Below the pieces are notes generated by a model. It was not told the DNA's origin. It did not search any database and worked only from the letters and a program-made list of their open reading frames with translations. From the NCBI RefSeq assembly GCF_003334335.1, contig NZ_QOWQ01000003.1: 64,000 nt of DNA, one strand, 5' to 3'. A program made the position numbers and the translations under genes. Source of the DNA: Escherichia coli (GTDB taxonomy: Bacteria > Pseudomonadota > Gammaproteobacteria > Enterobacterales > Enterobacteriaceae). Shown here in pieces: positions 43,589 to 45,703 of the stretch. Numbering within the stretch: position 1 is the first letter of the stretch; each line of letters starts with the position of its first letter.

Positions 43589-44299
43589 ATGAACGCTGAG
43601 CGTAAATTTCTTTTTGCCTGTCTTATTTTTGCGCTGGTCATTTACGCTATCCACGCTTTCGGTTTATTCGATCTGCTCACCGATTTACCCCACTTACAGA
43701 CACTCATCCGCCAGAGCGGATTTTTCGGCTATAGCCTCTATATTCTGTTATTCATCATTGCCACCCTCTTGCTGTTACCAGGAAGCATACTGGTGATCGC
43801 GGGAGGAATAGTTTTTGGCCCGCTCTTAGGGACACTACTCTCATTAATTGCCGCCACGCTGGCCTCCTCGTGCTCATTCCTGCTGGCGCGCTGGCTGGGA
43901 CGTGATTTACTGCTGAAATACGTTGGCCATAGCAATACCTTCCAGGCCATTGAAAAAGGCATTGCGCGTAACGGTATTGATTTTCTTATTCTGACCCGCT
44001 TAATCCCGTTGTTTCCTTACAATATTCAAAATTACGCTTACGGATTAACCACAATCGCCTTCTGGCCTTATACCCTTATTTCGGCACTCACGACCCTACC
44101 CGGTATTGTTATTTATACCGTGATGGCAAGCGATCTCGCCAATGAAGGCATTACGCTGCGCTTTATTTTACAACTCTGTCTGGCGGGCCTGGCGCTGTTT
44201 ATTCTCGTCCAGCTCGCAAAACTCTACGCCCGACACAAACATGTGGATCTGTCTGCTTCGCGCCGCAGCCCACTTACTCACCCAAAAAATGAAGGATAG
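43589..44299 (+). CDS. ydjX: DedA/TVP38-family inner membrane protein YdjX
   Basis: ORF track 252 aa trimmed to MNAERKFLFACLIFALVIYAI... (236 aa); multi-pass, shares motifs with YdjZ. Confidence 0.85.
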   Translation: MNAERKFLFACLIFALVIYAIHAFGLFDLLTDLPHLQTLIRQSGFFGYSLYILLFIIATLLLLPGSILVIAGGIVFGPLLGTLLSLIAATLASSCSFLLARWLGRDLLLKYVGHSNTFQAIEKGIARNGIDFLILTRLIPLFPYNIQNYAYGLTTIAFWPYTLISALTTLPGIVIYTVMASDLANEGITLRFILQLCLAGLALFILVQLAKLYARHKHVDLSASRRSPLTHPKNEG

Positions 44300-44303
44300 A
44301 ACG

Positions 44304-44981
44304 ATGTTGCAACATTATTCAGTGTCATGGAAAAAAGGACTGGCTGCACTCTGTTTACTGGCTGTTGCTGGGCTTAGCGGCTGCGATCAACAAGAGAATG
44401 CGGCGGCAAAAGTGGAATACGACGGACTTTCGAACAGCCAACCGCTGCGTGTCGATGCCAATAACCATACGGTAACCATGCTGGTGCAAATTAATGGTCG
44501 TTTCCTCACCGACGACACTCGTCACGGTATTGTGTTTAAAGATGGCTCCAACGGACATAAATCGCTGTTTATGGGTTATGCGACCCCGAAAGCATTTTAT
44601 GAAGCCCTGAAAGAGGCAGGTGGTACGCCGGGCGAAAACATGACGATGGATAATAAAGAAACGACTCATGTCACAGGCAGCAAACTGGATATTTCGGTCA
44701 ACTGGCAAGGGGCGGCAAAAGCGTATTCCTTCGATGAAGTGATTGTTGACAGTAATGGCAAGAAACTGGACATGCGCTTTGGCGGTAATTTAACGGCAGC
44801 AGAAGAGAAGAAAGCGGGTTGCCTGGTGTGTCTGGATAGCTGCCCGGTCGGCATCGTCAGCAATGCAACATACACTTATGGTGCGGTTGAAAAACGTGGT
44901 GAAGTTAAATTCAAAGGCAATGCCTCAGTTCTCCCGGCGGATAACACGCTGGCAACGGTTACCTTTAAAATCGCCGAATAA
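44304..44981 (+). CDS. ydjY: Putative lipoprotein YdjY
   Basis: Track ORF 44142..44981 trimmed to MLQHYSVSWKKGLAALCLLAVAGLSGC (lipobox LSGC); atg at 44304 preceded by aagga; 225 aa. Confidence 0.85.
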   Translation: MLQHYSVSWKKGLAALCLLAVAGLSGCDQQENAAAKVEYDGLSNSQPLRVDANNHTVTMLVQINGRFLTDDTRHGIVFKDGSNGHKSLFMGYATPKAFYEALKEAGGTPGENMTMDNKETTHVTGSKLDISVNWQGAAKAYSFDEVIVDSNGKKLDMRFGGNLTAAEEKKAGCLVCLDSCPVGIVSNATYTYGAVEKRGEVKFKGNASVLPADNTLATVTFKIAE

Positions 44982-44995
44982 AGCCAGGATAAAGG

Positions 44996-45703
44996 ATGAT
45001 GATGATGCAATCGCGAAAAATCTGGTACTACCGTATAACCCTCATCATCCTGTTGTTCGCTATGCTGCTGGCATGGGCGCTGCTTCCCGGCGTCCATGAG
45101 TTTATCAATCGCAGCGTTGCGGCGTTTGCCGCCGTGGACCAACAGGGTATAGAACGCTTTATTCAGTCTTACGGCGCACTGGCGGCAGTTGTCTCGTTCT
45201 TGTTGATGATTTTGCAGGCCATTGCTGCACCGCTACCTGCGTTTTTGATCACCTTTGCCAATGCGTCGCTGTTTGGCGCGTTCTGGGGCGGCTTGCTGTC
45301 GTGGACCAGTTCGATGGCCGGCGCGGCGCTGTGCTTTTTTATCGCCAGAGTGATGGGCCGCGAAGTGGTGGAAAAATTAACCGGCAAAACCGTGCTTGAC
45401 AGTATGGACGGCTTTTTCACTCGCTACGGCAAACACACCATTCTGGTCTGTCGGTTATTGCCTTTTGTCCCTTTCGATCCAATCAGCTATGCTGCCGGTT
45501 TGACTTCAATACGTTTTCGCTCGTTTTTTATCGCCACCGGGCTTGGTCAGTTACCGGCAACTATTGTTTATTCCTGGGCGGGCAGCATGTTAACAGGCGG
45601 TACTTTCTGGTTTGTCACCGGACTGTTTATTCTGTTTGCCCTGACCGTGGTGATTTTTATGGCGAAGAAAATATGGCTTGAACGCCAGAAGAGGAATGCC
45701 TGA
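44996..45703 (+). CDS. ydjZ: DedA/TVP38-family inner membrane protein YdjZ (paralogue of YdjX)
   Basis: ORF track 235 aa MMMMQSRKIWYYRITLIILLFAMLLAWALLPG... Confidence 0.9.
   Translation: MMMMQSRKIWYYRITLIILLFAMLLAWALLPGVHEFINRSVAAFAAVDQQGIERFIQSYGALAAVVSFLLMILQAIAAPLPAFLITFANASLFGAFWGGLLSWTSSMAGAALCFFIARVMGREVVEKLTGKTVLDSMDGFFTRYGKHTILVCRLLPFVPFDPISYAAGLTSIRFRSFFIATGLGQLPATIVYSWAGSMLTGGTFWFVTGLFILFALTVVIFMAKKIWLERQKRNA

Follow-up and report, generated by a model that had tools for sequence, protein, structure and literature searches.

What joins two membrane proteins of the DedA superfamily to the small lipoprotein encoded between them in Escherichia coli, and how far does this association reach beyond the species? 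The question is raised by ydjX, ydjY and ydjZ, three genes in a stretch of 64,000 nucleotides of E. coli DNA (RefSeq assembly GCF_003334335.1, contig NZ_QOWQ01000003.1), referred to here as the window. On its plus strand, ydjX (43589-44299; RefSeq, Pfam VTT_dom) encodes a 236-residue X-type VTT/DedA inner-membrane protein (TVP38/TMEM64, COG0398), ydjY (44304-44981; RefSeq, NCBIfam NF040466, precomputed Pfam PF27149) a 225-residue lipoprotein, and ydjZ (44996-45703; RefSeq, Pfam VTT_dom) a 235-residue Z-type VTT/DedA inner-membrane protein. A preliminary description of the segment 43589-45703, whose two ends coincide with the start of ydjX and the stop of ydjZ in RefSeq, had taken the trio for a tandem duplicate pair split by a lipoprotein, and for a possible heteromeric membrane unit with a periplasmic partner. 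As first noted, the arrangement is ordinary and annotated; the gene names, the DedA paralogy, the operon and its control by FNR, and the YdjY family model are already known. From comparison of YdjY neighbourhoods in other genomes, ydjX-ydjY-ydjZ is the enterobacterial form of a rare, old, YdjY-anchored module that occurs mostly in anaerobes.

YdjY and its VTT neighbours across phyla

We collected 80 species-level loci with a YdjY profile, taking flanks of up to 8 kb on each side, and annotated their six-frame open reading frames (ORFs) by phmmer and hmmsearch, the queries being the E. coli proteins and those encoded in the first contexts. In agreement with the proposed partnership of YdjY and VTT proteins, a VTT gene was found in the YdjY flank in 72 of the 80 loci, mostly directly adjacent, and at least four of the eight loci without one lie on short contigs that end about 700 bases or less from the YdjY gene on one side. 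This linkage spans Bacillota, Desulfobacterota, Campylobacterota, Spirochaetia and Enterobacteriaceae. A Z-type gene is the only VTT gene in 35 loci and an X-type gene in 13, both types being present in the remaining 24; a stand-alone X-type gene is nearly always accompanied by a Z-type gene. The gene order X-Y-Z was seen only in the six Enterobacteriaceae species matched. The YdjY family is rare, with at least 113 species matched among approximately 100,000 species genomes (a lower bound from a pattern-based scan) and 389 clusters at 50% identity among 1.84 billion representatives. Across phyla, its members are 45-60% identical to E. coli YdjY, and they include proteins from Finegoldia, Peptostreptococcus, Gemella, Catonella, Desulfarculus, Syntrophobacterales, Sulfurospirillum and Campylobacter; the YdjY-VTT module is probably horizontally mobile. 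Duplicated forms of YdjY were also observed, either as adjacent gene copies or as tandem domains in one protein (L041, L052; P0121, P0128).

Several further proteins recur in these loci. A small membrane protein of about 130 residues is free-standing in Campylobacterota, Desulfobacterota and some Bacillota, and forms the N-terminal part of 34 Bacillota Z-type ORFs of about 400 residues (E 1e-6 to 1e-35). It has no match in Pfam or NCBIfam, and a hidden Markov model of 30 free-standing copies found no match among the six-frame ORFs of at least 40 residues in the E. coli window at E values up to 10. A cytoplasmic dicluster protein with Fer4 and CCG domains is present in 24 loci; it is in frame with a VTT domain in most Desulfobacterota loci and is often fused to an X-type VTT protein, and its top NCBIfam matches ('dicluster-binding protein near Sec', TfrB and DsrK) all fall under their cut-offs. 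In a Campylobacterota locus (L008, 433-7803), the genes for YdjY, the small membrane protein and YdjZ adjoin a Psr/Phs-like molybdopterin oxidoreductase, with molybdopterin, NrfD and 4Fe-4S subunits, and a two-component system.

A second group of companions points to a putative link with sulfur or selenium. Secreted or lipoprotein rhodaneses resembling E. coli YnjE adjoin YdjY in 13 of the 80 loci, and rhodanese domains are also fused before, after or between YdjY domains, in at least three orders (P0151, P0154, P0150 and P0222); the entry A0A934E6M3, labelled 'Sulfurtransferase' in the AlphaFold database, is a further rhodanese-YdjY fusion. TusA/DsrE-like genes were found in eight loci, and an ATP-binding cassette (ABC) importer like YnjB/YnjC lies near YdjY in 16. 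Locus L095 brings many of these parts together: one strand encodes a Z-type VTT protein, a rhodanese-YdjY fusion, the small membrane protein, an X-type VTT protein, a TusA/DsrE protein and a PF11823 selenium/sulfur carrier, and the other an ABC importer and a CDP-alcohol phosphatidyltransferase.

The latter enzyme belongs to a third group, of lipid and glycosyl enzymes. YnjF-like CDP-alcohol phosphatidyltransferase genes lie inside the module in six non-enteric loci, namely L095 (12845-13062) and five loci of Bacillota (L034, 9124-9792; L048, 9771-10421; L061, 11383-12012; L059, 5323-5994; L044, 14760-15698), and the ynjF gene adjoins the module in all Enterobacteriaceae examined. On this pattern of neighbours, ynjF probably belongs to the same system, hinting at a special phospholipid. 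The ArsS radical-SAM family (TIGR04167) is represented in 10 loci and TIGR04282 in 16, together with TIGR04283, all above their NCBIfam cut-offs; TIGR04283 (GT2) resembles polyprenyl-phosphate sugar transferases. This ArsS (seleno)protein family and the 'arsenosugar biosynthesis' transferases TIGR04282 and TIGR04283 recur beside the YdjY module in unrelated anaerobes and are all absent from the E. coli locus, ArsS-family loci including L018, L021, L032, L050, L052, L055, L063, L066, L081, L082 and others, among them L007 (2926-4263). Two further fusions were noted: P0243 joins an FA_hydroxylase domain to YdjY, and in the metagenomic P0193 a hydrophobic segment separates the C-terminal part of a Z-like VTT protein from a YdjY domain that comes after it. 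As a single, N-terminally incomplete fragment, P0193 is weak evidence for a VTT-YdjY fusion.

The preliminary description had looked to joint conservation of the trio in related genomes, and this does not extend to Kluyvera, Klebsiella and Citrobacter, which keep ydjX-ydjZ without ydjY. Their loci (L090, L091, L092) read ast operon, xthA, ydjX, ydjZ, ynjB, ynjC, ynjD, ynjE, ynjF, with ydjX and ydjZ abutting or overlapping by a few bases, and with identities to the E. coli proteins of 68-74% for YdjX and 73-77% for YdjZ. A tblastn search of these loci returned no ydjY remnant (best E=2.3), and a ynjA homologue (53-56% identity) adjoins ynjF on the opposite strand. Since these sister genera lack ydjY and have ynjA outside the operon, the Escherichia operon order is a lineage-specific rearrangement; and since a Z-type gene adjoins YdjY in other phyla, loss of ydjY from Kluyvera, Klebsiella and Citrobacter seems more parsimonious than its gain by Escherichia.

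Two VTT types and a cysteine-bearing lipoprotein

The paralogy of YdjX and YdjZ is well beyond generic hydrophobicity: a BLASTP alignment over 197 residues gives 26% identity and 47% positives (E=4e-17), and the short motifs first cited as shared fall within it. Both proteins match the Pfam VTT_dom model PF09335 (YdjX residues 63-179, 6.8e-26; YdjZ residues 81-197, 1.6e-24) and thus belong to the DedA/VTT superfamily, in line with published work in which both are among eight E. coli DedA proteins and are placed with the TMEM41/Tvp38 branch. The idea of a tandem duplicate pair fares less well. Z-type proteins were identified in 59 loci (224-278 bits against E. coli YdjZ) and X-type proteins in 37, and these form two separate old groups: mean pairwise identity is 64% within the Z-type, 35% within the X-type and 22% between them. 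E. coli YdjX has a mean identity of 29% to non-enteric X-type proteins as against 20% to Z-type proteins, and E. coli YdjZ one of 52% to non-enteric Z-type proteins, including those of Bacillota and Campylobacterota; a split between Z and X was recovered in 70 of 100 bootstrap clusterings by average linkage. Because the two groups are distinct across phyla, the duplication must long predate the E. coli arrangement. A recent tandem duplication of ydjX and ydjZ was accordingly rejected, the two copies not being each other's closest relatives by identity or in the cluster analysis, and the E. coli pair thus represents two old lineages travelling together rather than a local tandem duplicate.

The two types also differ in their cysteines. 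Among 59 aligned Z-type sequences (58 from the loci and E. coli YdjZ), two cysteines in the membrane region are kept, C113 in 100% and C152 in 95%. Neither YdjX nor YdjZ classes with the UptA-type undecaprenyl-phosphate flippases: the NF052604 model gives 27.5 bits for YdjX and 36.4 bits for YdjZ against a cut-off of 250, and the second re-entrant loops (TRLIPLFPYN in YdjX, CRLLPFVPFD in YdjZ) lack the UptA-type residues and hold a single Arg each. This is in line with previous reports that COG0398 DedA proteins are without the residues tied to undecaprenyl-phosphate flipping; in other contexts COG0398 proteins have been found fused to disulfide oxidoreductases, mercuric-reductase-like ones included. 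Both proteins have Lys/Arg residues ahead of the first hydrophobic segment and Lys/Arg-rich C-terminal tails (...ARHKH...RR... in YdjX, ...KKIWLERQKRNA in YdjZ). By the positive-inside rule, this distribution predicts that both have the N- and C-termini inside, and an antiparallel dual-topology pair was set aside on the same charge bias.

The classification of YdjY as a lipoprotein was borne out by a lipobox, LSGC, at residues 24-27 (...LLAVAGLSGC|DQQ), which fits the pattern [LVI][ASTVI][GAS]C and whose Cys is kept in at least 90% of aligned homologues. The residue at position +2 after this Cys is Asp, and under the Lol-avoidance rule Asp at +2 retains a lipoprotein in the inner membrane, so YdjY is predicted to sit on the outer face of the inner membrane, beside YdjX and YdjZ. 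The protein matches the NCBIfam model NF040466, 'YdjY domain', with 145.1 bits (cut-off 50). An alignment of 20 diverse members contains 44 invariant positions, among them T72-R73-H74 and the motif G172-C173-x2-C176-x-D178-S179-C180, which supplies a Cys triad (C173, C176 and C180). The AlphaFold2 model has a predicted local distance difference test score (pLDDT) of 90.9; Foldseek found no PDB fold match with E<1, and no relatives of solved structure were found by sequence, so that the YdjY fold is effectively uncharacterised. Its best structural neighbour, with 11% identity and an E value not below 1, is the DUF371 protein 7y7n, which is itself without known function. The label of 4Fe-4S ferredoxin attached to YdjY in UniProt and JGI was rejected: Pfam Fer4_3 matches with E=0.35 and ferredoxin-like PDB entries with E>=0.3, the motif has three cysteines (CxxCxxxC) and not the full CxxCxxCxxxCP, and the signal is of the Sec lipoprotein type with no twin-arginine motif.

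Candidate roles of the module

We tentatively favour, at somewhat less than even confidence, a reading in which the module would take a thiol-reactive cargo through the membrane as one step of an envelope relay. Sulfane sulfur or selenium would be the likeliest cargo, as it fits the partners best. On the extracytoplasmic side, the cysteines of YdjY, at the outer, periplasmic surface of the inner membrane, would exchange cargo with a rhodanese, which in E. coli would be YnjE. Passage through the membrane would fall to the VTT proteins, with the two YdjZ cysteines as candidate ligands, and a cytoplasmic partner would receive or supply the cargo, this being the CCG dicluster or a TusA/DsrE-like protein elsewhere and perhaps the CxxC protein YnjA in E. 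coli. Transfer might run in either direction, the cargo might travel free or on a lipid made by YnjF, and the E. coli system is turned on by FNR under anaerobiosis. Such a role is suggested by the conservation of the module and its two distinct VTT types, by its links to rhodanese, CCG and TusA/DsrE proteins, by the Z-type cysteines, the Asp at +2 and the activation by FNR, by the periplasmic site of YnjE, for which no physiological substrate is known, and by the COG0398 traits noted above, namely the missing undecaprenyl-phosphate residues and the fusions to disulfide oxidoreductases. A wider claim, which we hold more loosely and regard as rather doubtful, is that YdjX, YdjY and YdjZ form with YnjA, YnjBCD, YnjE and YnjF an unrecognised envelope system in which COG0398 proteins take sulfane sulfur or selenium, which might travel on a dedicated lipid, across the cytoplasmic membrane; an extracytoplasmic rhodanese-YdjY Cys relay would there be linked with cytoplasmic Fe-S/CCG, TusA/DsrE or AhpD-like partners.

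A number of observations weigh against such a relay. Its cargo is assigned from gene content and motifs; the activities demonstrated for the DedA superfamily are lipid scrambling or flipping only; and the module also recurs with lipid and glycosyl enzymes (the YnjF-like, ArsS, TIGR04282 and TIGR04283 proteins and the FA_hydroxylase-YdjY fusion). No conserved Cys is present in the X-type alignment, and the YdjY site of three cysteines and a His could be a structural or metal site instead of a relay site. Many of the rhodanese and TusA neighbours are limited to a minority of loci. Furthermore, YdjY must be dispensable in the lineage of Kluyvera, Klebsiella and Citrobacter, where it is absent although the VTT pair, the ABC importer and the rhodanese are all present.

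The strongest rival, which we consider possible if on the unlikely side, holds that YdjX and YdjZ act as flippases or scramblases that bring a special phospholipid, or a sugar linked to a lipid, to the outer leaflet. Its synthesis at the cytoplasmic side of the membrane would fall to YnjF, or in other organisms to the GT2 enzyme TIGR04283, from a precursor imported by YnjBCD, and YdjY, anchored in the outer leaflet, would modify or use its head group together with the rhodanese. Such a role accords with the known DedA/VTT activities of lipid scrambling and undecaprenyl-phosphate flipping, with the YnjF-like genes inside the module in the six loci listed above and beside it in the Enterobacteriaceae examined, with TIGR04282 in 16 loci and ArsS in 10, with the likeness of TIGR04283 to polyprenyl-phosphate sugar transferases and with the FA_hydroxylase-YdjY fusion. 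Taken alone, however, it leaves the rhodanese fusions, the CCG-VTT fusions, the TusA/DsrE and selenium/sulfur-carrier neighbours and the conserved cysteines unexplained; YnjF-like and ArsS-like genes occur in a minority of loci only, and the E. coli locus has no ArsS or GT2 gene. The relay and the lipid readings could merge if the cargo rides on a lipid. An obligate heteromer of YdjX and YdjZ with YdjY as a dedicated periplasmic subunit, close to what the preliminary description proposed, is compatible with either cargo, and with the metalloid reading below; we give it about the same probability as the lipid reading and regard it as plausible in Enterobacteriaceae only. The three genes are tightly spaced in one operon, X- and Z-type genes are adjacent in 24 of the 80 loci, in L095 and in Kluyvera, Klebsiella and Citrobacter, a stand-alone X-type gene almost always comes with a Z-type gene, and the charged termini imply a shared membrane orientation. 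Gene order makes an X/Z partnership plausible within Enterobacteriaceae, where ydjX and ydjZ stay side by side whether ydjY is present or not. YdjY stands as a genuine VTT partner, but a general X/Z heteromer is not supported, given the 35 loci with Z only and 13 with X only against 24 with both, the close relatives without YdjY, and the small membrane protein of about 130 residues, absent from the E. coli window, which is the regular third membrane component outside Enterobacteriaceae.

Less probable still is that YdjY binds a trivalent metalloid or soft metal (As(III), Sb(III), Hg or Te) at its Cys triad and hands it on towards the cytoplasm to be reduced or modified, after the manner of MerP-MerT-MerA. 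Three cysteines form the classical As(III) ligand set, and YdjY has such a triad; ArsS-family radical-SAM and two transferase genes adjoin the module in 10-16 loci, COG0398 proteins elsewhere are fused to mercuric-reductase-like oxidoreductases, and a YdjY homologue is present in Desulfuribacillus stibiiarsenatis. Nevertheless, the E. coli operon is under FNR, and the annotation of its 13.9-kb region includes no regulator of the ArsR or MerR type; the annotated loci showed no ars or mer genes, and the rhodanese, TusA and DsrE partners favour sulfur or selenium. That the three genes are merely co-transcribed neighbours with an incidental paralogy is strongly disfavoured by the comparative data, and we give it very little weight. 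The papers found report no phenotype for ydjX, ydjY or ydjZ, and several enteric genera keep the VTT pair without YdjY; yet linkage of YdjY to VTT genes in at least five major lineages (72 of 80 loci) is not expected by chance, fusions join the small membrane protein to Z-type VTT, CCG to X-type VTT and VTT to YdjY, and a protein divergence of 40-60% counters spread as a single recently transferred island.

Known systems offer partial parallels for these readings. The undecaprenyl-phosphate flippases UptA, YghB and YqjA (COG0586) share with YdjX and YdjZ the superfamily, the VTT/DedA core PF09335 and two re-entrant loops. Unlike UptA, YdjX and YdjZ fall in the COG0398/TVP38-TMEM64 branch, have a single Arg in the second re-entrant loop, and come with a dedicated lipoprotein, a rhodanese and redox partners. 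Published trees place them closest to the TMEM41/Tvp38 family, that is, to the eukaryotic scramblases TMEM41B, VMP1 and Tvp38, and the substrate-loop residues of COG0398 proteins are reported to be similar to those of these scramblases. The bacterial module differs from them in its Cys-triad lipoprotein, its Cys-bearing Z-type protein and its Fe-S/CCG fusions. To our knowledge, nothing comparable accompanies the eukaryotic proteins.

Parallels to the proposed relay lie in other systems. Both MerP-MerT-MerA (mercury uptake and reduction) and YeeE/YeeD (TsuA/TsuB; thiosulfate uptake) combine an outer Cys-bearing binder, a Cys-bearing membrane protein and a cytoplasmic thiol carrier or reductase. 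The YdjY module may, by analogy, follow the same logic, although it has no sequence or fold relationship to either and its membrane part is DedA/VTT. Sud/Str polysulfide-sulfur transferases with PsrABC, and membrane complexes of the DsrMK type with CCG proteins, occur in sulfur respirers. They resemble the module in having a periplasmic rhodanese-type sulfur carrier and a membrane-attached cytoplasmic CCG Fe-S protein, respectively, and a Psr-like oxidoreductase stands beside the module in L008 and there are weak NCBIfam matches to DsrK, HmcF and TmcB. In contrast to those complexes, the CCG matches are far under the family cut-offs, a VTT protein takes the place of cytochrome b or NrfD as membrane partner, and no CCG gene is present at the E. 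coli locus.

The literature searched contains no paper on YdjY function or on the ydjXYZ trio, no description of the cross-phylum YdjY-VTT module or of two VTT types with different fusion partners, none of rhodanese-YdjY fusions or of the inclusion of YnjF-like, TusA/DsrE-like and ArsS-family genes, and nothing on the absence or loss of ydjY in sister genera; metabolomics and polyprenyl-phosphate papers merely list or clone ydjX and ydjZ. COG0398 makes up about 27% of bacterial DedA proteins and contains the closest bacterial relatives of human TMEM41B/VMP1, with no function assigned to any member, and YnjE is a periplasmic protein without known physiological substrate. The comparison would join these orphans with YdjY, YnjA, YnjBCD and YnjF in one conserved system, and gives a lead on two orphan protein families that can be tested directly in E. 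coli K-12 grown anaerobically so as to induce FNR. If a sulfur or selenium cargo were confirmed, DedA-fold proteins would not be confined to bulk lipid flipping, COG0398, the second-largest bacterial DedA subfamily, would gain a first physiological role and YnjE its missing partner and substrate context, and a route of sulfur or selenium handling in gut and sediment anaerobes might be revealed. If instead the lipid reading were true, the module would lead to a hitherto unknown phospholipid of anaerobic growth and to the flippase that moves it.

The Escherichia locus and its setting

The region from 43400 to 46300 of the window is 100% identical to E. coli K-12 MG1655 and is present in 5425 of 5426 complete E. 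coli genomes, with a match covering at least 80% of the query in 5352. The trio follows xthA (42616-43422, RefSeq) and is separated by gaps of 4 nt (ydjX-ydjY) and 14 nt (ydjY-ydjZ), the ydjZ stop and the ynjA start sharing 1 nt; this tight spacing fits a single transcription unit, and no convincing intrinsic terminator was found within the unit. Published work with chromatin immunoprecipitation for FNR and RNA sequencing lists ydjXYZ-ynjABCD as one operon directly activated by FNR from a site at -60.5, and gives ynjE an FNR site of its own at -41.5 (PMC3688515). An FNR-like site, TTGAGAAAAATCAA, lies in the xthA-ydjX intergenic region (43466-43479, plus strand) with one mismatch to TTGAT-N4-ATCAA. 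Six such one-mismatch matches were observed in the window against 2.8 expected, so this match is weak by itself.

Downstream on the plus strand, ynjA (45703-46251) encodes a protein of the AhpD/carboxymuconolactone-decarboxylase family by its RefSeq product name, with a CxxC motif (CLCEFC). It is followed by genes for an ABC importer, comprising the binding protein YnjB (46261-47427; NCBIfam PRK11622, 560 bits), the double-length permease YnjC (47400-48935; NCBIfam permease match) and the ATPase YnjD (48935-49588; NCBIfam ATPase match). Next comes ynjE (49655-50962), for a periplasmic sulfurtransferase with three rhodanese domains that is identical to PDB entries 3ipo and 2wlr, and then, on the minus strand and convergent with it, ynjF (50971-51591, RefSeq), for a membrane protein of the CDP-alcohol phosphatidyltransferase family. 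The top NCBIfam match of YnjA is 'YciW-related (seleno)protein' with 101 bits, under the cut-off of 310. YnjE and the CCG proteins likewise match models named after selenoprotein variants or neighbourhoods, a recurring hint of selenium.

We note, in addition, that gene calls in some E. coli-like contigs join YdjX-YdjY or YdjY-YdjZ in one frame (P0122, 451 residues; P0278, 412 residues); the short gaps between the genes (4 and 14 nt) make frameshift or read-through variants, or errors of assembly, the probable source. Finally, the G+C content of ydjX/ydjY (0.47-0.49 over 43250-44250) is lower than that of ynjA-ynjC (0.55-0.58 over 45750-48250), a contrast that agrees with a mosaic origin of the operon and is compatible with it rather than decisive.

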